Assembly (NCBI GenBank): GCA_964609095.1
Contig: CAZSQN010000001.1
Coordinates: 86,117 to 150,116 of the forward strand
Source: an uncultured Gammaproteobacteria bacterium
GTDB lineage: Bacteria > Patescibacteriota > Patescibacteriia > CAZSQN01
Direction of reading: 5' to 3'
Length of the DNA stretch: 64,000 bases
Below are positions 4,253 through 54,971 of the stretch, piece after piece. Below the pieces are notes generated by a model. The model searched no databases and was not told where the DNA came from. It saw only the letters and a program-made list of their open reading frames with translations. The position numbers and the translations under genes are program-made. The stretch's first letter is position 1. Each line of letters opens with the position of its first letter.

Positions 4253-5407
4253 ATGTGGATTTGCGTTGACGGACGGGTCTTGCAGGATAAAGTTGGCGGC
4301 GGCGTGCAAAAATACGCTAAGCATCTTATGGATGCTCTTTTTAATTTGGACAAAGAAAATAATTATATTATTTTTACCAATTCTTACGGAGCGAGCGGCA
4401 TCCCGCAATTTTCCTATCACAACGTATTTGAAGCCGCTTTTTCATATCCAAACAAGATTCTTAACGCCCTGATTTTATCGCGCCGGCTATATTTGGATGA
4501 TTTGATTGAAAAAGAAATATCCCGAAAGTTTGGAAAAAAGATTAAATTAGACGCGTTTTGGGCCCCGAATCTGAATTTTGTCAATCTCCGGCCGGAAACT
4601 AAATTTTTGCTCAGCGTTCACGATATCTCCTTTTTGATTGAACCGGAATTTTTTACGCTCAAAGAAAGGATTTGGCATAAATTGGTAAACCCAAAGCTAT
4701 TATTTAATCGGGCCAACGCGCTTTTGCCGGTTTCTTGTTCAACGGCCGCTGATTTAGATAGAATCGGCGCGGAAAAAAACAAAGTATCGGTTATTTATCC
4801 GGGCATAGAACAAAAATATTTTCAAGAAATCAGCGAAGCAGAATTAAAACGGGTTCGGAACAAATATAATTTGCCGGAGAAGTTTATCCTGACTCTGGCG
4901 GCGGCCGGCAAGAGGAAAAATTTTGAAGGAGCAATCAAGGCGTTTCAAAACGGCAATATCGGCAAAGACATAAAATTGGTTATTGCCGGTTTTGGCACGG
5001 GCATAGCGCGCGCTTCTCGCGAGAGAATTATTTTTTTAGGTTCGGTGGATGAAGATGACTTGGCCGCCTTATACAAATCAGCGCAAATTTTTATTTATCC
5101 GTCTTTTTACGAGGGTTTTGGCTTCCCGCCCCTTGAAGCGGCCGCAGTCGGGACGCCGGTCATCGCGGGAAACGCGACTTCTATGCCTGAGGTTTGCGCT
5201 GGAAGCGCGATGCTTGTTAATCCTCATGACGCAAATGAACTTTCTTCGGCCATAACCGCGCTCGCCAATGAGTCCGCGCGGCAAAGTTATCTGTTGAATC
5301 GCGGACAAAATCGCGTTGCTGATTTTTCTTGGGCTGAATCGGCCCGTCTTCTTTTGAAATCATTTGAGAATTTAAAAAAACCGTCTCTTTTTGAGACGGA
5401 ATCTTAA
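4253..5407 (+). CDS. glycosyltransferase family 4
   Basis: GT4 C-terminal motif IYPSFYEGFGFPPLEAAAVGTPVIAGNATSMPEV and the N-terminal GGVQKY motif typical of GT4. Confidence 0.75.
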   Translation: MWICVDGRVLQDKVGGGVQKYAKHLMDALFNLDKENNYIIFTNSYGASGIPQFSYHNVFEAAFSYPNKILNALILSRRLYLDDLIEKEISRKFGKKIKLDAFWAPNLNFVNLRPETKFLLSVHDISFLIEPEFFTLKERIWHKLVNPKLLFNRANALLPVSCSTAADLDRIGAEKNKVSVIYPGIEQKYFQEISEAELKRVRNKYNLPEKFILTLAAAGKRKNFEGAIKAFQNGNIGKDIKLVIAGFGTGIARASRERIIFLGSVDEDDLAALYKSAQIFIYPSFYEGFGFPPLEAAAVGTPVIAGNATSMPEVCAGSAMLVNPHDANELSSAITALANESARQSYLLNRGQNRVADFSWAESARLLLKSFENLKKPSLFETES

Positions 5408-7021: not shown

Positions 7022-9568
7022 GTGAAGGAAACAAATAAAAAAAAGAACCAGCGGCTTGAGATAGTGGAAGAGGATGAGGCAATAACTCTTAAATTTGATT
7101 TGGGCCCACATGAGAGGTCGCCTCATCTTTTGGATCTTGATTCCATTTCGACCGCGGCGTTTCAGAGCCGCGATGAGCAGGTTAAGGATTTCTGGACGGG
7201 AGCAGTCAAGCCGCCAAGGCCCGGCAGAATGAAAAGATTTATCGCCAATCTGCGCGGCGTTTTTGAAAATGAGCGCGAGCACCGCTTGCTTGCGCCGGGT
7301 AAGCCGCGATTATTGGCCGATCTCTTCGATGAGCTTTTAATCTGCAATCTGTTCGAGATAATATTTATCGGAGCGCGGGCTGTTTTTACAGCTTATTTTT
7401 CGGCGTTGGTTTTTTGCGCCGGGCTTTTGCGCCGGGAAGACAAAATCCAGCCGGAGGCCTCGAGATTGGCAAAAGCGGAAAGTTTTGGGAAAGCGCGCGT
7501 TCCGGTTTTTCTGACCAAGGTTCCGCTTTTACCCGGACTTAGCAGCCGGGTTGTTCCTTTGGCGCGAAAAGATTTAAGTTTTTTGCGTTTTTCCCCTCCG
7601 GTCAGATTTGAACGGGCGCTTGTTTCTTTCGTGCTTCTGGCTTTTGTTTTTATTCTGCCTTTGCGCGTTGCTTCAACCTACGGCGAGGTAAACCGGACGA
7701 AATCAGTTCTGCTTCAAAAAAGCGTGGCCGCTTTTGAGTCGTTGAATAAATCCTGGAGCCAAGTGGGAAATCTTGAGGCCGCGGCCGCCGCTTTTGAAGA
7801 TGCCAGCGAAGGATTTGACGCCGTCCTAAAAGATATTGAAGAAACGCATCAAATTTTGCAGAAAGCCGCCTCTGTTCTGCCCGAAGGAGAACAGCTTGAT
7901 GCCGGAAAATCATTGCTTCTCGCCGGTTCTTTGGTGGCCGCTTCGGCAGAAGTGCTGGCCGGACGGCTCGCCGCTTTAAACGATTCTGCCCTGCCTCCGG
8001 CGGAGCGCGTGCATCAGCTTGGAGAAAGTTTGAATACGGCTTTGCCCTTGTTGCAGAACGCCAGAGAAAAGCTTGATTCAATTTCGGTTGAAGTGATACC
8101 TGCGGAATACAGGAACGGCGCCGCCGCGGCCATGGCTCTGTTGGATCAAGTGATAGAAGGAGTGGAAAGCTCGGAAGCGGCCACTTCTGTTTTAGAATAT
8201 ATCCTTGGCAGGACTGAACCGAGAAGATTTCTTGTTGTTTTTCAAAATAATGCGGAATTGCGGCCGACGGGCGGGTTTATCGGCTCGTTTGCCGAAATTG
8301 ATTTTGCCGCCGGCGATATTACCCGCATGTGGATGCCGGGCGGCGGCTCGTATGAGCTCCAGGGAGGTTTGCGGGCAACAGTCATTCCGCCCGAACCGCT
8401 GCAGCTTATTGCTTCGCGCTGGGAGTTCCAGGACGCCAACTGGTTTCCGGATTTCCCGTCTTCGGCCAGAAAGTTAATGTGGTTTTATGAAAAATCCGGC
8501 GGTCCGACCGTTGACGGCGTTATCGCGCTCACTACTTCCGTGGTTCAAAAATTATTGCAGGTGACCGGGCCGATTGAGATGCCCGAATACGGCAAGATAA
8601 TCACCGCGGATAATTTCTGGCTGGAGACGCAGAAGGCCGTGGAATTGGAATACGATAAGGAGGAAAACAGGCCCAAACAGTTTTTAGCCGATTTGGCGCC
8701 CAAGCTTATCGCGCGCCTTAAAAGCAATGACCCGAAAACATTTTTTGCTTTAGCCAAAGCTCTGGCCGAAACAATCGGAGAGAAACATTTTCAGATTTAT
8801 CTGCGGGACCAATCCGCGCAGGAGAAAATCACGCATTTGGGCTGGGGAGGCGAATGGCGGCCAACTTCCGGCGATTCCTTGGCTATTGTCAATACCAATG
8901 TGGCCGGCGGCAAAACAGATGGAATCATAAGCGAGCACATCAAGCATTCCGCCAAAGTTGATGAGGACGGCTCGACAGTGGTAACGGTTGAGGTAACACG
9001 CGCTCATCAAGGAGTCAAGAATGAACTTTTTAGAGGCGTGCGCAATGTTGATTACGTGAGAATTTATGTTCCCGAGGGTTCTACCCTGCTTGAATCAAGC
9101 GGCTGGAGAAAGCCGGTCCAGTCCCTTTTTAATATTATTGACGAGAACGCTAATCCGGATACGGATCTGATCTCGGCCGATGCCGGCTCGGCCGAAGAAC
9201 CGGCAACGGGCACTAAAATCAGCCATGAATTCGGCAGAACTGTTTTTGGAAATTGGATTATGGTTGATCCCGGAGAGACCGTCACTTACAAGCTGGCATA
9301 CCGTCTGCCGCAGAAGATAACTTTTAGCCAGGCAGAGAACGGATTTTTGGAAAAAATTGGTTTGCGCGAAAAGGATATTCCGCAAGCGTCTTACAGTTTA
9401 TTGCTTTTGAAGCAGGCCGGAACCGTCAATACCACTTTTGAACATTCGGTGGAGCTGCCGGCTGATTGGCAAGTTATTTGGCGCAACGCTCCGGAAGCCG
9501 GCAAGTCCCTGCCTTTGGACAGAGACAGGTTTTTCGGGGTTGTGGCCACGCCGGCCCACGGTTTATGA
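7022..9568 (+). CDS. DUF4012-like large membrane-anchored protein
   Basis: 848 aa, N-terminal TM segment, conserved LVVFQNNAELRPTGGFIGSFAEIDF block recalled from DUF4012 proteins that pair with DUF11-type surface proteins in CPR genomes. GTG start; 4-bp overlap with the next gene. Confidence 0.6.
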   Translation: MKETNKKKNQRLEIVEEDEAITLKFDLGPHERSPHLLDLDSISTAAFQSRDEQVKDFWTGAVKPPRPGRMKRFIANLRGVFENEREHRLLAPGKPRLLADLFDELLICNLFEIIFIGARAVFTAYFSALVFCAGLLRREDKIQPEASRLAKAESFGKARVPVFLTKVPLLPGLSSRVVPLARKDLSFLRFSPPVRFERALVSFVLLAFVFILPLRVASTYGEVNRTKSVLLQKSVAAFESLNKSWSQVGNLEAAAAAFEDASEGFDAVLKDIEETHQILQKAASVLPEGEQLDAGKSLLLAGSLVAASAEVLAGRLAALNDSALPPAERVHQLGESLNTALPLLQNAREKLDSISVEVIPAEYRNGAAAAMALLDQVIEGVESSEAATSVLEYILGRTEPRRFLVVFQNNAELRPTGGFIGSFAEIDFAAGDITRMWMPGGGSYELQGGLRATVIPPEPLQLIASRWEFQDANWFPDFPSSARKLMWFYEKSGGPTVDGVIALTTSVVQKLLQVTGPIEMPEYGKIITADNFWLETQKAVELEYDKEENRPKQFLADLAPKLIARLKSNDPKTFFALAKALAETIGEKHFQIYLRDQSAQEKITHLGWGGEWRPTSGDSLAIVNTNVAGGKTDGIISEHIKHSAKVDEDGSTVVTVEVTRAHQGVKNELFRGVRNVDYVRIYVPEGSTLLESSGWRKPVQSLFNIIDENANPDTDLISADAGSAEEPATGTKISHEFGRTVFGNWIMVDPGETVTYKLAYRLPQKITFSQAENGFLEKIGLREKDIPQASYSLLLLKQAGTVNTTFEHSVELPADWQVIWRNAPEAGKSLPLDRDRFFGVVATPAHGL

Positions 9569-11442
9569 ATCCAGAGGAAAGCCGCGGAAAATCTCAAAGA
9601 GGCCGCGCGCGCCGGCGCTCCGATGAAATAGAAAAAGGACTGCGGGAGATTTATGAAAATCCCGAAGTCGGGTCTCAAGATTTAACCACTTTTACCCGCG
9701 GCCCGGGATTGGGCAGGTGGCTAATGGCGGCGGGGATTATTTTTTTTGTTTTTTTGGCAGCGGCCGCTTGGGCCGGTTTTTATATTTTCCGGCCGGCGGA
9801 AAAATTTGCCGGAGAAAATATTGATTTAACCATTACCGCCGCCGAAGAGCTGACCTCCGGCGCTGTTTCTGAATTTGTCATAAATTACGGCAATCGCGAA
9901 ACAGTGCCGCTGGGCGCGGTGGAGATATCTCTTGCCTATTCCAAAGAATTTAAGCTGATTGAAACGGAACCGGCTTCGCCCGAAGCCAATAGCTGGAGGA
10001 TAGGCAGTCTGCCCAAGGGCGGAGAAGGACATATTAAGCTCTCCGGCGCCATCAATGCCCCCAAGGGAAAAGCAATTGCCGTCTCCGCCTATCTTACTTA
10101 CAAACCGGCGAATTTTAATTCTGAATTTCAAAAAGTGGCGAATGCCTCGTTTAATGTGGCCAAATCAATGCTCGCGCTGGAAGTAGAGGGGCCGGAGCGC
10201 GCCGTGCCCGGAGAAGAAATACAATATCTTGTTAAATATCAAAATAATTCCGGCGCAAAATTGGAAAGAACGGAGATCAGGGCTTTTTACGCGGAGAATT
10301 TTTTTCCAAAAAAGGCCGCGCCCGCTCCCGCGGAGGGGGAAGGGAGATGGCTTCTGCCGGCTCTTGCCGATGGAGAAAAAGGAGAAATTAAGATAACCGG
10401 AAGCTTTTCTTCAACGGCCGAGGGAACGCGCCAGTCCTCTTTTGAAGCGGGAAAGGCGAATGAGGATGGTATTTGGCTCCCTATGGAGAGAGTGGCTTCT
10501 TCGGCGGAGCTTGTTAAAAGCGAACTTAAACTGATTCTTGTCGGGAACGGAGGAGGTGGGGGCGCGGTTAATTTTGGCGACACATTGCGTTATTCTCTTT
10601 TTTTTGAAAATAGAAGCCAAATGGCCTTATCGGATATTATTCTTTCTCTGCGTTTGGAAGGAAGTCCGGCGGTCGGAGGCAGGTCGCCGCTTGTTTGGGA
10701 AACCATTTCCGACGAGGCGGGAGCAAAAAGGACAGGCGATACTCTGACTTGGACAAAAAAGCAAATCAGCGCTTTGGGCCGCCTTGAACCCGGGGAGCAG
10801 GGAACGGCGGATATTGCCATTGAGCTTGTCCCTGTTCCTTTTAGCAAAGGCGGAACCGATTATAAGGTCGTTGCTTTTGGCGAAGCCAAAATAGGAAAGA
10901 TAGGCGGCGCGCGTTCGGACAGAGTCGCGAGAAGCGAGCCGCTGGAGATGAAGCTGTTTTCTGATTTGGTTTTTATTGCCGAAGGCCGGTATTACGATGA
11001 CGATGACAATGCCGTTGGCGCGGGGCCGGCGCCGCCGCGCGTGGGAGAAACCACTTTCTACCGCATTTGGTGGACGCTCGCCAATACCCTGCATGATTTG
11101 GAGGAGCTTAAAGTTGAGAGCGTTTTGCCCCCAGGCGTTAATTTTACCGGCAGGTTTAATTCGGAAGACGCGGGCGAACTTTCGTATGATGAAAAAACGC
11201 GTAAAGTCGTTTGGAAAATAGAAAAATTAAAAGGCGCGAAAGAGCCGGTCCGCGCCGAGTTTGAGGTATCCATTACCCCGGCCGAAGACCAGCTTGGCTC
11301 GACGGTAGTTCTAACGGACCTGGCCAGCGCCTCCGGCCGCGACACGGCTTTGGACGCGCTTATTTTCCGCACGGTGCCGCAGATTACCTCCAACATTGAA
11401 ACCGACCCGAATCTTGCCGGTAAAGGAACAGTGAGGAGATAG
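9565..11442 (+). CDS. DUF11-like repeat surface protein
   Basis: ATGA overlap with the upstream stop. N-terminal TM helix (WLMAAGIIFFVFLAAAAWAGFYIF). Repeated beta-rich modules (GEEIQYLVKYQNNSG, GDTLRYSLFFENRS) resemble DUF11 conserved repeats. Intrinsic terminator follows at 11459-11490. Confidence 0.55.
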   Translation: MNPEESRGKSQRGRARRRSDEIEKGLREIYENPEVGSQDLTTFTRGPGLGRWLMAAGIIFFVFLAAAAWAGFYIFRPAEKFAGENIDLTITAAEELTSGAVSEFVINYGNRETVPLGAVEISLAYSKEFKLIETEPASPEANSWRIGSLPKGGEGHIKLSGAINAPKGKAIAVSAYLTYKPANFNSEFQKVANASFNVAKSMLALEVEGPERAVPGEEIQYLVKYQNNSGAKLERTEIRAFYAENFFPKKAAPAPAEGEGRWLLPALADGEKGEIKITGSFSSTAEGTRQSSFEAGKANEDGIWLPMERVASSAELVKSELKLILVGNGGGGGAVNFGDTLRYSLFFENRSQMALSDIILSLRLEGSPAVGGRSPLVWETISDEAGAKRTGDTLTWTKKQISALGRLEPGEQGTADIAIELVPVPFSKGGTDYKVVAFGEAKIGKIGGARSDRVARSEPLEMKLFSDLVFIAEGRYYDDDDNAVGAGPAPPRVGETTFYRIWWTLANTLHDLEELKVESVLPPGVNFTGRFNSEDAGELSYDEKTRKVVWKIEKLKGAKEPVRAEFEVSITPAEDQLGSTVVLTDLASASGRDTALDALIFRTVPQITSNIETDPNLAGKGTVRR

Positions 11443-11509: not shown

Positions 11510-11992
11510 TTAGGCAGCTGTGCTTGTAGTCATGAGCGCTTTTAGATCCGCTGGATTTATAAGTTTGAATCGCAAGCCGTGCCATTCCGAGATTTTCTCT
11601 TTCAAGTCACCGAAACGGTCGACTTGATACAACTGGTTACGAGCGATGACATAGCTGGCGTGAGCCGCCACATACTCCGCGCCCGGCGCTTCCGCTTCGG
11701 GCTTTACGGCGCACATGCTGCCAATCGCGCCGTAGCGCGTGACAAAATTCCAGAAAGAGTCCTGTTCGCCAAGGGTGATGAAGAGTTCGCCGTCTTTCAA
11801 CCCTTTGGCAATGCGTCGGAAATCCTTAGCGGTCAGGTCGCCCCAGCCGAGTTTTTCGCCCAGCTTGTTGTACCAGCCGCTGTTGTGGGTCAGCTTGGTC
11901 TTGCCGCCGCGCATCTGCCCGCAATAAAGGCCGAACAGGCCGCCCGTCGGATTGGACTGACTCCCGTACATTCCCTTGGTCAGCTGTGCCAT
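11510..11992 (-). CDS. hypothetical protein (GC-rich islet)
   Basis: 160-aa ORF overlapping by 13 nt with the upstream HIT gene (translational coupling). Local GC is clearly above neighbouring genes. No recognised domain. The antisense ORF 11579..12217(+) is low-complexity and judged spurious. Confidence 0.5.
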   Translation of the reverse strand: MAQLTKGMYGSQSNPTGGLFGLYCGQMRGGKTKLTHNSGWYNKLGEKLGWGDLTAKDFRRIAKGLKDGELFITLGEQDSFWNFVTRYGAIGSMCAVKPEAEAPGAEYVAAHASYVIARNQLYQVDRFGDLKEKISEWHGLRFKLINPADLKALMTTSTAA

Positions 11993-12627
11993 AAGGCGCC
12001 TCCTTCAAGAGGCGGTTTGAGACGGTTAACGGTTTCCTGTCCCAGTTGTTTGTCCAGTTCCGGATCCATGTTGCGCCAATTTCCACGCTCGGGATGGCCA
12101 AGAAGTTCGGCTATGATGAGGCGCAGATATTGCGGCGGCGCTGGCGGATTCCAGCATACCATTGATTTGCCGCTAGGGACGGTCCAAAAAAGATATGGCT
12201 CCGGGCGCTTGCCGTAAAGTTCTTGTAAGTGCGCCGCATACTGCAGCTCTTCAAACTCGGATTCGGGAAAGTCCGCGCGTATCTTTGCGGTCAAGTCAAT
12301 AACTGTTGGCAAGAGATGAAGATGAGCGTGCTTGACGGTCTGTCCAATAATTCCATGTTCAAACACCGTAACGGGATAAGGAGCTGCTGAAGCGCTGTGC
12401 TGGTATTCCAACGAAAGCGCGCGGCACACTCTTTTTGTTATTTTGAGCATCGCTTCCGTTTCACTGCCAGTCAGCGCGCCCATGCACGAGATGTGCGCTT
12501 TTGGAATTACAAGGGCGTATCCACCGATTATTTGGCCAAGCGTAGCGGCTACATACCACCCGCTATTTTCAGCGATGAGACGGTCTCCAAGCTTAATTCG
12601 GTCGCAGAAAACGCAACTGTTGTCCAT
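11980..12627 (-). CDS. HIT (histidine triad) family nucleotide hydrolase/transferase
   Basis: Histidine triad motif HAHLHLLP. N-terminal CxxC (CVFCDRI) as in HIT/GalT-like proteins. ~90-aa C-terminal extension. Confidence 0.7.
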   Translation of the reverse strand: MDNSCVFCDRIKLGDRLIAENSGWYVAATLGQIIGGYALVIPKAHISCMGALTGSETEAMLKITKRVCRALSLEYQHSASAAPYPVTVFEHGIIGQTVKHAHLHLLPTVIDLTAKIRADFPESEFEELQYAAHLQELYGKRPEPYLFWTVPSGKSMVCWNPPAPPQYLRLIIAELLGHPERGNWRNMDPELDKQLGQETVNRLKPPLEGGALWHS

Positions 12628-13931: not shown

Positions 13932-13955
13932 ATATTAGACATCTTCACAGGATTA

Positions 13956-13984
13956 TTGACAAAAAGCAAGATTTGTGATAAGTT
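13956..13984 (+). promoter_or_regulatory. sigma70-like promoter (TTGACA-N17-TAAGTT) plus conserved ~60-nt leader, copy A
   Basis: TTGACA at 13956-13961. The whole 13950-14043 block is ~85% identical to 22073-22170. Confidence 0.55.
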
Positions 13985-14040
13985 AACTTAATCGTTCCTT
14001 AACTTCAGAATAAGGAAAATCAAGCCAAAAAGGAGCGCAA

Positions 14041-14676
14041 ATGGACAGGAAGCAGGCAAAAACGCAGACAGGCGCATCGGACACTTCCGGCACTTTGGCC
14101 ATAGCTCGCCGCAACTGGTTCATGAACTGGTACCGCGAGCTTGGTTTTTCCCTTCAGATACCAGTTCCTCCTGTTCCAGATGAGGAGTACAAGAGTAGAA
14201 AGGAACAGGGTCAAGACCTGTTCTATCGTCCTCCAACCTCCGAGGTCTCTTACGAGGCCTTGATGAAGGCGGTTGGACAGGGCAAATGTTGGACTGTCGT
14301 GAACGGGAGCGACAGGAAGAAGATCAAGTGGGAACCTACCCAAACCGGCTACTGGTTCTGGGCCGAAGTTTCCCAAGATTGTCCCCGCCTGGGCACATCC
14401 TGGCATGGGCTCACCCGCACCAAAGAGCAGGGACTGGACTTGCTTTCCTTGCTTTCATTGGAAGAGTATGCGCTTGTCTGGTGGGCGCACAAAGCCGCAA
14501 CCAACGCCATACTTGATACCGGAAATTGGTCTTGGCTTCGTACCCGTTTCAGGGATAGCGCTTTGCATGCCAGCGACTGCTATGGCAGGGTCTGCGTGGA
14601 CGGGTGGGATGCGATCAGCATTGCGTACCCTTATGTCAACATGGGCGGCCGCTCCGCGGAAGTGGTCAAGATGTAA
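14041..14676 (+). CDS. hypothetical Trp-rich protein (GC-rich, foreign composition)
   Basis: 211 aa; SD AAAAAGGAG 8 nt upstream; 13 Trp; markedly higher GC than flanking genes. No recognised domain. Confidence 0.55.
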   Translation: MDRKQAKTQTGASDTSGTLAIARRNWFMNWYRELGFSLQIPVPPVPDEEYKSRKEQGQDLFYRPPTSEVSYEALMKAVGQGKCWTVVNGSDRKKIKWEPTQTGYWFWAEVSQDCPRLGTSWHGLTRTKEQGLDLLSLLSLEEYALVWWAHKAATNAILDTGNWSWLRTRFRDSALHASDCYGRVCVDGWDAISIAYPYVNMGGRSAEVVKM

Positions 14677-15390
14677 CTTGAGTCCTGATTGCTTGTTCCC
14701 CCAGTACTAGAACTTTCGAGTTCAGTACGGGGCTTCGCTTTTGCCCTCTTGTACCTTGTCCCGTTAGAAGCCACATTCTAAACGGGTACAACTTTAAAAT
14801 TTCGTAGGAGCTTTCTATGTTTAGAGCTTCTAACGGGACTCGTGTCCCTTCAACTTTGATTGAAGGGACTTTTAATTTATGTTGGGACTGTCGCCAAATA
14901 CCATTTCTACTGCAATTCTCAAATTTCAGCTGCAAATTTCTAAAAACTCCTCCGCTTATACTGCGTATAAACATCGTCGTTTTTATAAATTTTCGCTTTG
15001 AAATTTGAGAATTTCGTGACGAAAGCGCATTTGGCGACAGTCCCAGAATAGCGGAAAAATTTTTAGTTTCAAAAAATACGATTAAATACAATACTGCAAT
15101 ACTGGGAAGTATTGCAGTATTGTATTTCGGATGGTATTGATGGTCATCGGATGGTTGTCATCGGATGGTGTTGATGGTCAGTTGTCTCATGTGTCGGCAG
15201 GATTATGAGGGCAGGATATTGATACGACAAATTGATCCCGCCCCCGAGAATCGGGGGCCCGCACATGCCTCCAAAATTAAATAATAACAAAAATCAGCTA
15301 TAGCTTAAAATTGTTATTTTAAATATTTATGACATGGGCTTTTTTTTACAACAATTTCGCATCGGCCGCATATTTTTGTTGTAAGAGGGG

Positions 15391-15948
15391 TTAGGCACGT
15401 CGTCCAAGCAATTTTAAAGCCTCCCTTAGCCGCGCTTCCGAGGCGGAGAGAGACGGAGAGATTTTGCCGATAGCGCCTTTGGCTTCTTGTTTGGAATATC
15501 CCAGTCGAACTAAGGCGTCAACAACATCATCGCTACCTCCTGCCTCGTCAAACTCTATTTTTCCGCGCAGTTCCAGGATTATTTTTTGCGCGGTTTTGCC
15601 GCCGACGCCCTGCGCTTCGGAAAGAAATTCCGCCCGGCCGGAGGAAATGGCTTTTTTGATGTCAACAAGTTTGCCAAGGTCAAAAAGGCGCATCGCCATT
15701 TTTGGCCCGACGCCGGAGATAGAGATGAGCTTCTTAAAAAAATCCAATTCTTCCCGCGTCCTAAAACCGTAAAGCTCGCGCGAGTCCTCCCTGATGTATT
15801 CATGCGTCCAAAGACCTAAAACGGCTCCGGCGGAGAGTTCGCCGAGCAATGTTTTGGGAGCCGCTATTTCATATCCTATGCCGGTATTTTCTAAAATCAG
15901 CGAATCGCCGTCCACTGCTATAATTGTGCCTCTGATAAAGGAAATCAT
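15391..15948 (-). CDS. ruvA: Holliday junction branch-migration complex subunit RuvA
   Basis: N-terminal OB domain (MISFIRGTI...DGDSLILE), two HhH motifs (ISGVGPKMAMRL; AQGVGGKTAQKIILEL), C-terminal RuvB-interacting domain. Confidence 0.85.
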   Translation of the reverse strand: MISFIRGTIIAVDGDSLILENTGIGYEIAAPKTLLGELSAGAVLGLWTHEYIREDSRELYGFRTREELDFFKKLISISGVGPKMAMRLFDLGKLVDIKKAISSGRAEFLSEAQGVGGKTAQKIILELRGKIEFDEAGGSDDVVDALVRLGYSKQEAKGAIGKISPSLSASEARLREALKLLGRRA

Positions 15949-16087
15949 AGTTAGCTTTCAGCTTTTAGCTTACCAGGTAGTGAAACAAAGTTCTACTACC
16001 TGGCTTATAGCTTTTAGACGAGAGCGTCCAGCCCGACAAAATATAAAAATGCCCCGTACTTTGTTACAAGTACGGGGCAAAGAACAG

Positions 16088-32352: not shown

Positions 32353-32426
32353 GGGCCATTAGCTTAATGGCAGAGCACCCGGTTTGCATCCGGGAGATGA
32401 GAGTTCGATTCTCTCATGGTCCACCA
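32353..32426 (+). tRNA. tRNA-Ala (anticodon TGC), CCA encoded
   Basis: GGGCCATTAGCTTAATGGCAGAGCACCCGGTTTGCATCCGGGAGATGAGAGTTCGATTCTCTCATGGTCCACCA. Confidence 0.85.
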
Positions 32427-33920
32427 TTTCAGATTTGCCGAAGAAGTTGCCTCGGGGCTTCGCCCCTCGGCATTGGTTTCCGCCAAGAAATTCCAGGGGG
32501 TTTTGAATTCCGCCAAAAGAATTCCCGCCGCAAGTCGGCGGTTCGAGCCGATGGAAACAAGAAAATCTCTCATCAGTGAGGGATTTTCTTGTTTAGAGAG
32601 ATTTACGGCTTGGTTGGCTTCAATAATCCAGTTTCGCATGAGTTCGAGCCAATGATTACCTTTTCGCTCAAAATCAGATAATTTCTCCTCAATTGTTTTC
32701 TTTTCCGCCATTAAAACATTCTTTTTCTCTTGATACTCGGCAAGTTCCAACGCCTCGCCTAAATATGCGTCTGTCAGTCGCTCCAGTCGTATTTTAATGG
32801 CGGAAATACTATCGCGGAGATTTTGAGCGAAAAGGTCTGATGAGTGGCGGGATTCTTTGTTCTCATTTTCCAGTTTTGCCAAAAACTTTTCCCGCCACTC
32901 ATCGGGCAAAGAAACTTTTTGACAAAGATTTTTCACTTGTTCAGTTAGCACTTCTTCCCGCAAAAAGCGATTTTCAGTGCATTGAATAGTTTTGCTCTTG
33001 TGGGTGCAACGATAATAAATGAATTTCAAACCACTTTTCTTGATATGTCGCTCGGCGGTTATGGCGTAGCCACAAACCCCACAAGTAGCAAAACCTAAAA
33101 ACTGAAAATTCTTCGGTCCTCGCTTTTTGCGGGGTTTCCCATTCTGAACAAGCGCCTTTTGTATCTCGTCAAAAAGTTTCTTTGAAATCATTGGCTTATG
33201 CGAACCTTGATGCACCTCGCCACGATATTGAAAATGTCCGTAGTAAAAAGGATTTGTGAGTATGTGTTCAATACTGGCGAGGTGCAAAGGTTTGCCCGTC
33301 TTGCCAACCAAGCCAAGAGAAAACATTTTGCGCTGAATTGCCGTGAGCGTATATTGTCCCGTAGCAAAAGCCTCTAACGCTTCTTTTACTTTACCAAAGG
33401 TCTTTTTGTCTGGCTCAATCGTGCGAAGTCGTGGCTCGTTGAAATATCCGAGAGGGGCTTTTGCCGATAATTCACCACGCCTAATTTTTTGGCGAATACC
33501 ACGCAAAATGTTTTCTCTTAAATTGTCGGTGTAATACTTTGCTTGTCCGAAGGCGACACTCAACATAAATTTTCCTTGGGGTGTCGCCTCGAACCAGAAA
33601 GTAGGGAATTTTAGCGATTGGATTTTGAGTGTATCCACCAAGTAAATGACACGCCCGCCGTCAATCGAGTTACGAGCTAATCTATCGGGGTTCCACGCTA
33701 AAATTCCCTGTGCGGTGCCTTTTTCAATTTCGCCAAGCATTTCGTTAAAAATCTCTCGCCCTGGCTCTTTGGCGGTTTTTGATTCGTAGTATTCACGAGC
33801 AACGAAAAGAGAATTTTGCTTGGCGAAATCACGCAATTCTTGAAGTTGTGCCTCAATACTCAAAACTTGGCGTTCCTCATCCTCACTAGATTTACGACAA
33901 TAGATAAAGTATTTGATCAT
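32364..33920 (-). CDS. large serine recombinase (resolvase/invertase catalytic domain + recombinase domain + zinc ribbon)
   Basis: N-terminal serine-recombinase catalytic motif (YCRKSSEDEERQVLSIEAQ; catalytic Ser in RKSS). Central recombinase domain and Cys pairs (CGVCG...YYRCTH). ORF runs through repeat 'a' and terminates inside tRNA-Ala. Start MIKYF at 33920; the upstream TTG-initiated extension is encoded by repeat a'. Confidence 0.8.
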   Translation of the reverse strand: MIKYFIYCRKSSEDEERQVLSIEAQLQELRDFAKQNSLFVAREYYESKTAKEPGREIFNEMLGEIEKGTAQGILAWNPDRLARNSIDGGRVIYLVDTLKIQSLKFPTFWFEATPQGKFMLSVAFGQAKYYTDNLRENILRGIRQKIRRGELSAKAPLGYFNEPRLRTIEPDKKTFGKVKEALEAFATGQYTLTAIQRKMFSLGLVGKTGKPLHLASIEHILTNPFYYGHFQYRGEVHQGSHKPMISKKLFDEIQKALVQNGKPRKKRGPKNFQFLGFATCGVCGYAITAERHIKKSGLKFIYYRCTHKSKTIQCTENRFLREEVLTEQVKNLCQKVSLPDEWREKFLAKLENENKESRHSSDLFAQNLRDSISAIKIRLERLTDAYLGEALELAEYQEKKNVLMAEKKTIEEKLSDFERKGNHWLELMRNWIIEANQAVNLSKQENPSLMRDFLVSIGSNRRLAAGILLAEFKTPWNFLAETNAEGRSPEATSSANLKWWTMRESNSHLPDANRVLCH

Positions 33921-34409
33921 AGAATTGCGTGATTGAATTGCACCGCACTTACACCGACAATTTCTAAAATCTCTCATCGGCTCTTGCGCCTTTGGCGCAA
34001 TCCAAACTTTGTTTGGGAACCGCCGACTTTCGGCGGGAATGCTTTTGGCGGAATTCAAAACCCCCTGGAATTTCTTGGCGGAAACCAATGCCGAGGGGCG
34101 AAGCCCCGAGGCAACTTCTTCGGCAAATCTGAAATGGTGGTGTTTGTTTGAAAAAGTCAGAACCCATTTTGCGGAGAACCCTGAAAACTAATGCGGACTC
34201 GGCAGGGCGAAACATTTGACTGGGGATATGGATTCGCCCTGCCTCGGCTGATTTCCCGCCCGCAGGAGGGGTCTGGGGAGGAATGCGGGCGGGTTTCGGA
34301 CTGGGGGTTTTCGGAAAAAAATTCTCGGCTACAAAATTGATAAAAGTCCTCATATCTGTTAGTATAATACTACGAACGAAATCAAGCAACAGTTAAATGT
34401 TATCAATAT

Positions 34410-38679: not shown

Positions 38680-39216
38680 ATGCCTTATATACCATCAGGC
38701 AGTGAAGTTCTAAATCCAAAGGCGCTTGCGGAAAAAATGGGCGTAGCCGAAGGAATGACCGTGGCCGACCTTGGCTGCGGCACGCAGGGGCATTTTGTAT
38801 TTCCGGCCGCCCACCTTGTCGGGTCCAAAGGAAAAGTGTATGCGGTTGATATTTTAAAATCCGCGCTCTCCGGAGTGGAGAGCCGGGCAAAAGTTGAGGA
38901 AGTGGATAATGTGGAAACCGTCTGGTCTGATTTGGAAGTGTACGGCGGAACAAAAGTGCCGGAACTTGATTTAGCCATGCTCATAAACAATTTGCCCAAA
39001 GAGCCGATGTTAAAAGAAGCGGCCAGAGTTGTTAAAAAGGGCGGCAAGCTCGTCGTGATTGATTGGAAGCCGTCAGCCGCGCCGCTCGGGCCTCCGTCAA
39101 AGGATCGCGTGGACAAAGACCGTATCAAAAATTTGCTGATTTCTTGGAGATTTAGATTAACGGAAGATTTTGAGGCCGGACCGTATCATTTTGGATTGGT
39201 ATTCGTCAAAGAATAG
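38680..39216 (+). CDS. class I SAM-dependent methyltransferase
   Basis: Motif I VADLGCGTQG. Acidic motif II KVYAVDIL. Confidence 0.75.
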   Translation: MPYIPSGSEVLNPKALAEKMGVAEGMTVADLGCGTQGHFVFPAAHLVGSKGKVYAVDILKSALSGVESRAKVEEVDNVETVWSDLEVYGGTKVPELDLAMLINNLPKEPMLKEAARVVKKGGKLVVIDWKPSAAPLGPPSKDRVDKDRIKNLLISWRFRLTEDFEAGPYHFGLVFVKE

Positions 39217-39350
39217 GCGGCATTGCCAAGAGAAAGGTTTTTGTGCTAAAAGAGTAGCAGACATTTTTGTCTGTTTTTATTTTAGCGGTTAGCGGTCAGC
39301 GTCAAGCGTTCAGTAAATTTCTAAACGCTATACGCTATACGCTTGAGATT

Positions 39351-39767
39351 ATGAATCTCGCGGGATACAAAGCATTTCTTACTTTGGGATATTGGTTCAA
39401 TGTCCGGCCTTTGCCTATGCCCAAAACTTGGATTATCGGTTTGGCCATTTTTTTCGCCGTTTATATCGCGGCCGGAATCGTTTTTAATATATTGGCAAAG
39501 CGGAGCGCGCCATTGCTTGCGCGCCGTTTTAAGCCGGTTTCCAGATTTTTCTGGGCCGCCGGGCTTTTGGGATATCTTTGGCTGTTTTTTTCCTACGAAG
39601 AGGCGATTTTGCTTGGCGCGAGATTTTGGTTTCTTTTGATTGCCGCGGCAACCATTGTCAGAGCGGTTTTCACGTTATTGGATTTTAAAAAGAATCTGCC
39701 CAAAGAAGCCGCGGCGCAGGAAGAAAAAAGAAGATTTGAAAGTTATTTGCCGAAAAAGAAAAAATAA
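39351..39767 (+). CDS. hypothetical membrane protein
   Basis: Start moved to ATG 39351 because the ORF's 5' extension covers a heptamer-repeat hairpin (39285-39345). 3-4 TM helices. Confidence 0.45.
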   Translation: MNLAGYKAFLTLGYWFNVRPLPMPKTWIIGLAIFFAVYIAAGIVFNILAKRSAPLLARRFKPVSRFFWAAGLLGYLWLFFSYEEAILLGARFWFLLIAAATIVRAVFTLLDFKKNLPKEAAAQEEKRRFESYLPKKKK

Positions 39768-40455: not shown

Positions 40456-40638
40456 GAGCTTGACGATTCCGGTTCGTTGTGTTATAGTATAAATGCAATA
40501 AAGACCTGGGTTAAATACTCTGGTCTTTTTCATTTAATCAAATAAGAATATAATACGAATAATGGTTTTTATGCGAATTCGCGGATATGTGAATTTGCAT
40601 ATTCGCATCATTCGCAACTATTCGCAGATTCGTATCTT

Positions 40639-41913
40639 ATGCCATCAGCAATCATGCAAGCCATAAAACAGATTTCTGACGAAAAGGGGCTGCCATACGA
40701 GAGCGTGCTTGAAACCATTCAAGCCGCTTTGGCCGCCGCTTACAGAAAGGATTTTGGAAAGAAAAACCAAAATATAAGAGTTGAATTTGATCCGGAAACC
40801 AGCAATCTCCGGGCTTTTGACGTAAAAACGGTTGTTTCGGATGAGCTGGCCGCCGCGTACGCGGCCGAAGAGGAAGCCAGGCGTAAGGCCGCCGAAGAGG
40901 CCGCGGAAGAAAAAAGACCGCTGTTTAAAAAAGAAGAAGAAAAGTCAGTTGAGTCAGTTTTAGCGGAAGGCGAAGAAAAAGAGCTCAAATTTAATCCCAA
41001 GCTTCATATTTCTTTAACCGAGGCGCGAATCATAAAGCCGGATGCCGAGGTGGAGGAGGTTATCACCACGGAATTGGAGGTGCCCGGTTCTTTTGGCAGA
41101 ATGGCCGCGCAAACCGCCAAACAAGTAATAATTCAGCGTCTGCGCGAAGCGGAACGGCAGACCGTTTTTGACGAATTCAAAAGCAAAGAACACGAACTTA
41201 TAAACGGAGTAATTCAGCGCCGCGAGGGCAGGGTTGTTTTGGTTGATCTCGGGCGCGCGACCGGCGTCATACTTCCTGACGACCAGATTCCGGGCGAGGT
41301 CTACGCGCCCGGCGCGCGGATGAAAATGTATATTTCTTCCGTGCAAATTACTCAAAGAGGGCCGGAAGTTCTGGTTTCTCGTTCCAGCCCGGAAATGGTC
41401 AGAAAACTTTTTACTCTTGAGATTCCGGAAATTGTTTCCGGCGCGGTTATTATAAATAATATCGCCAGAGAGGCCGGTTCCAGAACCAAGGTGGCGGTTA
41501 GCGCCAGCGCGCCCAATGTTGACCCCATCGGTTCTTGCGTGGGGCAGAGAGGAACGCGCATCCAGACCGTCATTGGTGAACTTGGCGGAGAAAAAGTTGA
41601 TATCATCCAATATGAGGAGGATTACGCCAAATATGTCTCTAACGCGCTTTCGCCGGCCAAAGTCATTTCGGTTAAAGTTGACGAGGCCTCGCAGACCGCC
41701 AATGTGACTGTTTCCCCGGACCAGCTTTCATTGGCCATTGGCCGCGGCGGACAAAATGTGCGGCTCGCGGCCCGGCTTACGGGCTGGAAAATCAACGTGA
41801 TGGAAGCGGGAAAGCCGGAGATTGTCGAAGGCGGAGAAGCGGTTCCGGAAGAATCCGCAAAGGAGGAAATAACGGCAGAAGTTTTAGGAGAAACGGACAA
41901 AGCCAAAGAGTAA
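40639..41913 (+). CDS. nusA: transcription termination/antitermination factor NusA
   Basis: N-terminal NusA domain, S1 and tandem KH domains (VIGELGGEKVDIIQY; GRGGQNVRLAARLTGWKI). Acidic C-terminal tail. Confidence 0.85.
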   Translation: MPSAIMQAIKQISDEKGLPYESVLETIQAALAAAYRKDFGKKNQNIRVEFDPETSNLRAFDVKTVVSDELAAAYAAEEEARRKAAEEAAEEKRPLFKKEEEKSVESVLAEGEEKELKFNPKLHISLTEARIIKPDAEVEEVITTELEVPGSFGRMAAQTAKQVIIQRLREAERQTVFDEFKSKEHELINGVIQRREGRVVLVDLGRATGVILPDDQIPGEVYAPGARMKMYISSVQITQRGPEVLVSRSSPEMVRKLFTLEIPEIVSGAVIINNIAREAGSRTKVAVSASAPNVDPIGSCVGQRGTRIQTVIGELGGEKVDIIQYEEDYAKYVSNALSPAKVISVKVDEASQTANVTVSPDQLSLAIGRGGQNVRLAARLTGWKINVMEAGKPEIVEGGEAVPEESAKEEITAEVLGETDKAKE

Positions 41914-54133: not shown

Positions 54134-54313
54134 ATGGGAAAATGGTATGTCGGATGTATAGAAGTTCCGGGTGTGAATACACAGGGAAGGACGCTTAAAG
54201 AATTAAAGAATAATCTTAAGGAGGCCTTAGTTTTGGTTTTAAAAGTAGGCAGGTCTATTCTCGCGAAAGAACGGCCTCGGGGAAAAGTCGTTCGTGAGCG
54301 CATTAGACTCTAA
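54134..54313 (+). CDS. HicB-like (UPF0150) antitoxin-fold small protein, orphan
   Basis: 59-aa ORF (below ORF-track cutoff): MGKWYVGCIEVPGVNTQGRTLKELKNNLKEALVLVLKV. No hicA partner found on either strand within 300 bp. Confidence 0.5.
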   Translation: MGKWYVGCIEVPGVNTQGRTLKELKNNLKEALVLVLKVGRSILAKERPRGKVVRERIRL

Positions 54314-54336
54314 AACTTTCTTTAAAACTCTTAAAG

Positions 54337-54370
54337 TCCCTATTACTTGCTATAGCAAGTAATAGGGACT
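54337..54370. promoter_or_regulatory. perfect 34-bp palindrome (GTCCCTATTACTTGCTA|TAGCAAGTAATAGGGAC), putative operator
   Basis: Exact dyad. The same core (ATTACTTGCTATAGCAAGTAAT) recurs at 55061-55082 on the other side of the PaaX-like gene. Confidence 0.55.
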
Positions 54371-54422
54371 ATGATTGTTTTAGCAAATTTGATGTTTAAT
54401 CATTCATATATGATTATGATTT

Positions 54423-54971
54423 ATGACCAAGAAAGGCGAAATCGCATTTAAGATTTTGGCGGCGGTAGGTTTGGCAGGGGTGGTATGCGCGGCAGTTGTC
54501 GCGCCAAATGTTTTCCAATTTCTGCCAAATCCGTACAAAAGAAAATACCCTAAAAGATCTTTAGATAAAGCTCTTCAACGATTGAAAGATCGCGGACTGT
54601 TGAAATTCGCCGCCGGTTCTAATGGCTGGAGAGTTGAACTTACGGAAAAAGGCCGTGAAGAACTTTTTGCGTATGAGACGTGTGAAAAAATGTTTAAGAA
54701 GCCCAAACGATGGGATGGCAAATGGCGGCTTCTCGTGTTTGATATTGAGGAGAAAAGAAAAAGCATCAGAGAAATGGTGCGACAAACACTTGTGCGGCTG
54801 GGATTTTATCGTTTGCAGGATAGCGTTTGGGCACATCCTTATGAATGCGAGGATGTGTTGGAACTTTTGCGCGCTAAATACCGCGTTCGCCATGAGGCGT
54901 TGTATTTACGCGCGGAGTATTTGGCTAAAGATCATTGGCTGCGTAAGCACTTTAATCTTCCTTTAGATTAA
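54423..54971 (+). CDS. PaaX-like transcriptional regulator (short form; N-terminal wHTH, C-terminal WDGKW...LGF...SVW domain)
   Basis: C-terminal block WDGKWRLLVFDIEEKRKSIREMVRQTLVRLGFYRLQDSVWAHP matches my recollection of the PaaX_C signature; it also resembles the Cas2/VapD sequence pattern (similarity noted, fold relationship uncertain). N-terminal LKDRGLLKFAAGSNGWRVELTEKGREEL is wHTH-like. Confidence 0.5.
   Translation: MTKKGEIAFKILAAVGLAGVVCAAVVAPNVFQFLPNPYKRKYPKRSLDKALQRLKDRGLLKFAAGSNGWRVELTEKGREELFAYETCEKMFKKPKRWDGKWRLLVFDIEEKRKSIREMVRQTLVRLGFYRLQDSVWAHPYECEDVLELLRAKYRVRHEALYLRAEYLAKDHWLRKHFNLPLD

Follow-up and report, generated by a model that had tools for sequence, protein, structure and literature searches.

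The locus considered here is a non-coding gap of 714 nt (14677-15390) in a 64,000-nt stretch of DNA, called the window throughout, from a bacterium of the Candidate Phyla Radiation (CPR). The gap is bordered on one side by a gene for a protein of 211 aa (14041-14676, plus strand) and on the other by the convergently oriented ruvA (15391-15948, minus strand). The protein is a paralog of the variable (target) proteins of diversity-generating retroelements (DGRs), and the gap is treated in the following as the 3' end of its gene cassette. The window was matched to contig JACOZF010000010.1 of GCA_016181485.1, a metagenome-assembled genome (MAG) of Candidatus Uhrbacteria (CPR/Patescibacteria), so that contig JACOZF010000008.1 of the same assembly, denoted L048, was assigned to the same genome; other related contigs are likewise given as L numbers. 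A preliminary description of the gap had listed inverted repeats, hairpins and direct repeats between 14700 and 15390, all of which are present with the small corrections given below. Its statement that the region holds no credible open reading frame (ORF) agrees with the finding that the small ORFs of the gap lack a Pfam match. Three features had escaped it, namely the DGR variable-protein paralog at the border, the nature of the first 205 nt of the gap as the 3' end of the cassette, and the insertion of gene and gap together.

Compared with dinucleotide shuffles, the 714 nt showed a strong excess of folding on each strand (z=-10.65), which sits in 14699-15127; the segment 15128-15342 alone reached z=-2.7 and -1.1. 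A search of 14677-15390 against Rfam gave no match at the gathering level, and a permissive E-value scan returned only models of miRNA precursors, i.e., generic long hairpins, with at most 43 bits against thresholds of 72-195. Concerning the copies and the conservation that had been envisaged for parts of the gap, no second copy of any part was found in the 64-kb window, whereas two parts, the cassette flank and a foldback repeat (14878-15050), recur in 336 kb of related loci, where 15051-15390 has no detectable relative. Searches of viral contigs and of phage and plasmid collections with the gap parts yielded one chance-level match of 45 nt.

Gene and gap together form a lineage-specific insertion of 1,459 bp (13932-15390) between the start of femAB (13931, minus strand) and the stop of ruvA (15391, minus strand). 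In the relatives L044, L052 and L047, whose RuvA proteins are 80, 77, and 72% identical to that of the window, the gene order IleRS-TrmB-tmRNA/tRNAs-RuvA-FemAB-...-DUF4012 is the same, and the ruvA stop lies just 2-8 nt from the femAB start. Since ruvA and femAB are adjacent in all three, the segment comprising gene and gap is an insertion. Among the GTDB representative genomes, no RuvA exceeded 45% identity, so that no synteny could be drawn from that scan. In another Uhrbacteria MAG (L051, 10811-11158), the ruvA-femAB spacer is also enlarged, with a 9-nt unit (GGAGCTAGA-like) repeated five times in tandem and a foldback of 135 nt whose sequence is unrelated to that of the window's foldback; the same neighbourhood of this MAG has a DGR-target paralog between IleRS and TrmB. 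As this spacer is also expanded with repeats and a foldback, the junction seems tolerant of such insertions, which may be taken as a hint of neutral accumulation over function.

What was inserted between ruvA and femAB is a copy of a DGR variable-protein cassette reaching from promoter to terminator. Homology to other cassettes starts at the -35 box TTGACA (13956) of a promoter-like sequence (TTGACA-17-TAAGTT, 13956-13984, plus strand) that is conserved in L028, L048, L019, L041, L042, and L043, while the flanks further upstream are unrelated in every genome. The 211-aa protein has no Pfam match, and the same applies to its 29 homologs (37-67% identity), which are hypervariable in a shared C-terminal block that has conserved residues on either side. 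In L018 and L024, a template repeat (TR) comes after such homologs, then a bAvd gene of opposite orientation and finally a reverse transcriptase (RT) gene of the RVT_1 family. The contexts of the cassette differ by contig, as it follows murG, uvrC, a pyrophosphatase gene or IleRS, precedes a LysM peptidase gene, or lies by ruvB; a different context in each contig implies that the cassette moves or is repeatedly gained.

A search with the RT of L018 led to an RT of 82% identity, HYT45_01645, with the same locus-tag prefix as the window, and thereby to an intact DGR in the same genome. A DGR RT and Avd are thus present in the genome, on L048 and outside the window. This locus is ordered as a murG-like gene, a target of 242 aa, the TR, avd (bAvd, 9515-9931, minus strand, part of the DGR core on JACOZF010000008.1) and the RT (RVT_1, 10001-10987). 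Between the TR (9353-9470) and its cognate variable repeat (VR; 8882-8999), all 18 of 18 differences lie at TR adenines, and the same holds for 17 of 17 differences in L018 and 12 of 12 in L019. Two versions of the cognate target (P0002 and P0209, from the MAG and a Logan assembly) are identical in residues 1-203 and have 17 differences, all of them in the VR. As the target varies only there between sources, the L048 DGR has been active, and this is direct evidence of its diversification between samples. In L019 and L020, avd and RT are shortened: a deletion fused a truncated avd with a truncated RT of 192 aa (L019, 6255-7185), and the TR/VR differences are still exclusively adenine ones (12 of 12), a pattern that points to recent inactivation of the element. 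The intact layout is unusual in itself (L048, 8285-10987; also L018, L019, L024, and L028), with the target followed by about 255 nt of non-coding DNA, the TR, avd on the opposite strand and the RT. Four contigs share the conserved stretch of about 255 nt before the TR, which may contribute a structured segment to the DGR RNA; both this stretch and the orientation of avd set the CPR clade apart from the DGR prototype of Bordetella phage BPP-1, with which the comparisons were made (Guo et al., 2011, PMC3240598; Wu et al., 2018, PMC5758913).

The window protein is 67% identical to this cognate target, and the DNA encoding its C-terminus contains a VR-homologous region (14545-14662, plus strand) that ends in a GC-rich element (GGCGGCCGCTCCGCGGAAG, 14644-14662). 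Compared with the L048 TR, the region has 31 differences, comprising 16 at adenines, 13 at other bases and two indels, so that the adenine-only pattern of the cognate VR is not kept here. Likewise, the GC-rich element matches that of the TR at 16 of 19 bases. Neither RT, Avd nor TR was found in the 64-kb window, and the VR stretch is its only TR-like sequence. In clustering at 90%, the protein stands alone as a singleton, although NCBI and Logan contigs from at least eight samples contain it in identical form, and no VR diversification across samples was seen among the assembled copies compared. From the differences at non-adenine positions and the invariance across samples, we infer that the gene is a frozen, orphaned copy of a DGR target. 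Logan short-read contigs of several samples break at window positions 14684 (ends of L016 and L017) and 14964 (end of L015). The former break is attributed to a k-mer shared with the paralog's initiation of mutagenic homing (IMH) sequence and the latter to the centre of a palindrome; VR variation as their cause was rejected in favour of an assembly effect of repeats.

Alignment with six other cassettes identifies 14677-14881 as the cassette's own 3' flank, split by two insertions that are predicted to form hairpins. The conserved order is a GC element, an IMH-like stretch, a pyrimidine-rich spacer and a hairpin with a T-run. The IMH-like stretch (TGGTCAAGATGTAACTTGAGTCCTGATTGCTTG, 14663-14700, plus strand) diverges from the TR and is conserved among the target cassettes, with 96% identity to the cognate over 23 nt. 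Directly after the GC element, the targets have TGGTCAAGATGTAACTTGAGTCCTGA where the TR has CAATTCAAGAAGC, which means that target and template share the GC element and part company at the IMH. In the same way, TGGTCAAGATGTAA-CTTGAGTCCTGAYYGCTTG is kept among targets and unlike the TR, as IMH differs from IMH*. The hairpin (14844-14879, plus strand), which was recognized by a terminator scan, consists of a 10-bp stem and a T-run and is 80-87% identical in L018, L019, L021, L041, L042, and L048, whose versions feature a stem of 10-11 bp, a UUCG-type loop and a T-run. It resembles an intrinsic terminator and is a possible DGR target hairpin; in CPR cassettes, it may thus play a role in retrohoming or be a plain terminator. 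In the window, its loop has changed from CTTCGG to CTTTGA. Insertion 1 (about 39 nt, 14701-14739, plus strand) contributes a hairpin with a UUCG loop (14699-14732) followed by a T-rich tail, and insertion 2 (about 84 nt, 14751-14839, plus strand, ends accurate to within 10 nt) contains a perfect 14-bp inverted repeat. Both are absent from six of six other cassettes and together shift the conserved hairpin from about 45 to 168 nt past the stop codon. Accordingly, two of the three short GC hairpins reported earlier (14699-14732 and 14844-14869) hold as such, and the middle one is better described as the 14-bp repeat at 14758-14771 and 14826-14839. The homology of the cassette to the L048 DGR ends at 14881.

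Within 3 nt of this end begins the foldback repeat (14878-15050), an element of about 170 nt that forms a hairpin over its whole length and whose sense strand, according to alignment and folding, would be the minus strand. It incorporates the two nested inverted repeats reported earlier. The outer one, given as 17 bp, is perfect over 16 bp (GGGACTGTCGCCAAAT, 14884-14899 and 15029-15044) with the 17th base mismatched, and extends to arms of 30 nt at 83% (14878-14907 and 15021-15050); the inner one is perfect over 15 bp instead of 14 (14914-14928 and 14999-15013). A weak BLAST match led to L028, a contig with a target homolog, where copy a (158-327) is full and lies upstream of the target gene, and copy b (1548 to the contig end, 1548-1655+) has the opposite orientation and starts where the conserved pre-TR region ends. 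An nhmmer profile made from the window and L028 copies detected a further one in L029 (6764-6933, E=2.6e-17), a contig outside the model. It lies about 8 nt past the stop of a TP_methylase gene that neighbours thiI, and the target gene of L029 is 2.7 kb away. In total, four copies in three genomes and in differing contexts are known. The termini (GGGWCTGTYKCCAAAT and ATTTGGMRACAGWCCC) are conserved in all copies, the length is 167-173 nt and the ORFs have no Pfam match; the interior differs between copies yet stays paired. A covariance-model search revealed no further copy in the 336 kb of related loci, including 85 kb of this genome. Likewise, a scan of viral contigs for the termini returned nothing, and no copy was present in the phage and plasmid collections. 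The foldback thus sits at the breakpoint of the cassette homology, and its family is dispersed in other CPR genomes. Since the pre-TR region does not resume past the foldback, the element marks a truncation point and is not a simple insertion.

In view of these findings, we regard it as probable, if by no means certain, that an orphan DGR target-gene cassette ends here in truncated form and that the gap is a non-coding mosaic at this 3' end. The foldback would be a non-autonomous palindromic element similar to a miniature inverted-repeat transposable element (MITE), comparable to ERIC and NEMIS, and its insertion, or recombination at it, would have gone along with the cassette's truncation. 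Insertion 1, the conserved terminator, the foldback and the 20-bp hairpin further right form a stack of hairpins that would now mainly stop transcription and protect 3' ends, separating the convergent transcripts of the variable-protein gene and ruvA. The wider spacing between IMH and hairpin and the diverged GC element may contribute to a loss of retrohoming, and the right-hand 340 nt including the GATGGT array may be filler made by slippage or imported.

Several points weigh against this account. A single foldback copy in about 85 kb of the genome (window and L048) leaves mobility within the genome unsupported, and neither a clear target-site duplication nor a parent insertion sequence was found for the foldback; the L028 copies a and b are only about 75% identical to each other. 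The L029 copy is flanked on both sides by AAATAAA, within low-complexity sequence, and the window copy has no flanking duplication. Of the MITE-like reading offered by the preliminary description, the part that is borne out is the repeat family with conserved termini and a whole-length hairpin, present in two other CPR contigs (L028 and L029); no second copy turned up in the roughly 85 kb of this genome, and no consistent target-site duplication is seen among the copies. Besides, the foldback may either have caused the truncation or have landed at a pre-existing breakpoint. The roles as terminators and stabilisers are read from sequence, the hairpin past the ruvA stop has no U-tract, and co-evolution of the foldback arms can arise at the DNA level, so that covariation is no proof of function. 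The segment 15051-15390, for which the loci searched gave no relative, may have a specific function, e.g., protein binding.

The foldback can be compared with known repeats. ERIC of Yersinia and E. coli, NEMIS/Correia of Neisseria and the Ype/Efa hairpin families are co-transcribed palindromic repeats that fold into RNA hairpins (PMC1590033). Like these, the foldback belongs to the imperfect palindromes of 100-170 bp that form one long hairpin and are intergenic and non-coding. It also shares with these families the varied contexts across genomes and the importance of orientation for RNA folding. In contrast to them, its copy number is very low (one in about 85 kb here, four in 336 kb of related loci), and neither a duplication of TA or another target nor a parent transposase was identified. 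A full-text literature search found no MITE family described in Patescibacteria/CPR, and the host of the foldback has a reduced CPR genome. The hairpin stack, in turn, has traits of intrinsic terminators, as 14844-14869 has a T-run, 14699-14732 a T-rich tail and 15084-15127 a U-run on the minus strand, all of them between convergent genes. Unlike plain terminators, the hairpins are far more numerous and longer than termination needs, the 20-bp stem is AT-rich with its U-run 8 nt past the stem, and no U-tract follows the hairpin at the ruvA stop.

According to an alternative that we consider rather unlikely, the foldback is a functional structured RNA of the minus strand, which might be cleaved by RNase III as a long hairpin, stabilise a 3' UTR or act in antisense on the 3' end of the variable-protein gene, with the neighbouring hairpins in the same transcript. 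This corresponds to the structured non-coding RNA that had been suggested for the gap. In the window, the minimum free energy is -79.3 for the minus and -63.1 for the plus strand, and as RNA, the corresponding strand has an advantage of 14-20 kcal/mol over its complement in each of the three full copies. G-U pairs point in the same direction in L028a (5 vs. 0) and L029 (4 vs. 0), but they are equal on both strands of the window copy (3 and 3). In the alignment of three sequences, base pairing covers 92% of the cells, and compensatory changes occur in 22 of 67 pairs, compared with 1-5 in slid controls and a level reached by 0 of 500 shuffles; nevertheless, palindromic DNA retains complementarity without any RNA, and n is 3. 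The L029 copy closely follows a co-oriented gene, that of the TP_methylase, and the window and L028b copies lie downstream of, and antisense to, the target gene. Still, position and orientation relative to genes vary between copies, no promoter or terminator is conserved, and there is no Rfam family, the generic long-hairpin miRNA models staying far under their thresholds. A bolder proposal, to which we assign a low probability, is that foldbacks delimit and mobilize promoter-to-terminator DGR target cassettes in CPR, or encode a strand-specific long-hairpin RNA acting as an antisense regulator of such genes. Bearing on mobilization, the inverted copies of L028 bracket the target gene, and that of the window lies precisely where a transposed cassette breaks off.

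It is improbable that the window gene is instead a live remote target, with 14644-14879 as a working recognition region on which the DGR of the other contig would act in trans. Several traits are shared with the target 3' boundary of known DGRs: a C-terminal VR whose end is a GC-rich element also found in the TR, target and TR diverge past it (IMH vs. IMH*), intact relatives have a hairpin of 10-11 bp with a 4-nt loop, and the same genome houses the complete set of RT, Avd and TR. This DGR is intact and evidently active, the 26 nt after the GC element are identical to the cognate IMH-like stretch, the hairpin is conserved, and a DGR can also have targets that do not adjoin it (Wu et al., 2018, PMC5758913). 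However, a non-adjacent target is accepted only if TR/VR differences are A-to-N (PMC5758913), and the 13 non-adenine differences and the indels of the window VR stand against this; moreover, the GC element deviates at 3 of 19 bases. In BPP-1, efficient retrohoming needs a hairpin of suitable size and distance past the IMH, and longer spacer insertions progressively lower it (PMC3240598). In the window, the two insertions add about 123 nt between IMH and hairpin, the loop is altered, and the protein is invariant in at least eight samples, while the cognate varies. Further departures from known DGRs are the missing adjacent TR, avd and RT and the VR mismatches at non-A positions; from the prototype, the cassettes also depart by a T-tailed hairpin, whose distance from the stop is about 45 nt where the cassette is intact and 168 nt in the window.

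The right part of the gap (15051-15390) comprises further repeats for which nothing similar was found in the related loci and in the phage and plasmid collections searched. It begins with the hairpin formerly given as a perfect 19-bp stem; the stem is indeed perfect, but has 20 AT-rich bp and a 4-nt loop and lies at 15084-15127, about 5 nt from where it had been placed. It resembles a terminator of the minus strand, with a U-run 8 nt past the stem, and has no copy elsewhere. This is followed by a tandem array of TCGGATGGT(NTTGATGGT)CA units (15127-15180) with CATCSGATG near-palindromes and no homolog found, for which Tandem Repeats Finder reported a 14-nt period and three copies. Of the three direct repeats CATCGGATGGT listed before, two are exact (15145 and 15159) and one is a partial copy, and of the six GATGGT motifs, five were found, within 49 nt; 23 other copies of the motif occur on both strands of the 64 kb. 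The two GGCAGGAT units (15196 and 15210) exist as described and are part of two direct repeats of 13-14 nt, GGCAGGAT(T)AT(T)GA (15196-15222). The GC-rich hairpin at 15240-15258, with an 8-bp stem and a 3-nt loop, is present as well. An AT-rich imperfect palindrome (15283-15318) lies within an AT-rich stretch (15262-15345), and a 9-bp hairpin with T8/A8 flanks (15346-15384, minus strand) directly follows the ruvA stop without being a canonical terminator on either strand.

A decayed TR, avd or RT in the gap was rejected, as tblastn and Smith-Waterman comparisons were no better than shuffles; for TR, pre-TR, avd and RT against 14870-15390, the Smith-Waterman scores equalled those of shuffles. 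A retron reading of the hairpins was dropped with no RT adjacent, and so was an integron attC reading, since the GTTAGAA/TTCTAAC motifs deviate from the attC R'/R'' consensus. The GGAUGG repeats resemble a CsrA-like GGA sponge, but these motifs do not lie in the loops of the predicted folds.

The preliminary description had also proposed an iteron cluster, and it is very improbable that the direct repeats (15127-15222) together with the AT-rich stretch and the hairpins constitute a protein-binding cluster, which might serve as an operator array, in partition or as an origin of the iteron type: the five GATGGT at a spacing of 9-14 nt, the two exact CATCGGATG near-palindromes 14 nt apart, the two GGCAGGAT 14 nt apart and the adjoining AT-rich segment 15262-15345 resemble plasmid and phage iteron origins, which have at least three direct repeats spaced by 14-20 nt with AT-rich DNA and inverted repeats nearby, but no initiator, rep, par or regulator gene is adjacent (the chromosomal neighbours being the housekeeping gene ruvA and the DGR target paralog), an origin was rejected because the gap has no DnaA box (up to one mismatch) and the cumulative GC skew neither a switch nor an inflection, the repeat motif is unique to this spot in the window and 336 kb of related loci, the plasmid and phage collections gave no match, and such short tandem arrays readily arise by slippage.

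Further observations concern the surroundings of the gap and the remaining window, which also encodes RNase P RNA, tmRNA and tRNAs. A HIT-family gene (11980-12627), located between tRNA-Arg and a gene of 160 aa, is not found at that position in the closest relative L044 and represents a second indel difference from L044 in the ruvA-femAB neighbourhood. Upstream of ruvA (15964-16006), a hairpin of 31 nt (CCAGGTAGT...ACTACCTGG) is kept in L044 at another position (4779-4820); the AGCTTTTAGCTT repeats at its borders recur upstream of a target gene in L042 (150-215). Other 160-nt stretches that fold well were detected at 39201-39360, 40481-40640, and 54241-54480 (z of about -7 to -11 in a coarse scan with eight shuffles each), the last of which contains a palindrome of 60 nt (54323-54382). 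A large serine recombinase ORF (32364-34088, minus strand; Resolvase, Recombinase and Zn_ribbon_recom domains) is bracketed by inverted repeats of 124 nt that are 98% complementary (32421-32544 and 34017-34140) and begin at the 3' end of a tRNA-Ala; this region (32353-34146) could be an invertible or integrated element. Inverted repeats at 32658, 33315, and 34754 have a layout similar to those of the gap, but are located inside coding regions and unrelated to them.

DGRs are a known kind of element, as are orphaned or non-adjacent targets and intergenic palindromes, and the foldback family is one without an Rfam match. The locus thus adds members to known classes and leaves current concepts unchanged. 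Nevertheless, what would otherwise be annotated as a hypothetical protein beside an odd intergenic region becomes readable as a frozen copy of a DGR target, with an active DGR elsewhere in the genome. Within one organism, a diversified paralog can here be compared with a non-diversified one under natural conditions. Moreover, the locus may illustrate a route by which target recognition decays, involving insertions into the spacer between IMH and hairpin, divergence of the GC element and loss of the TR. In addition, a foldback repeat family is documented for CPR genomes, generally held to be poor in mobile repeats, and a copy of it marks a cassette breakpoint here. If foldbacks indeed serve as vehicles of such cassettes, this would be an undescribed means of spreading, truncating and silencing genes for hypervariable proteins.

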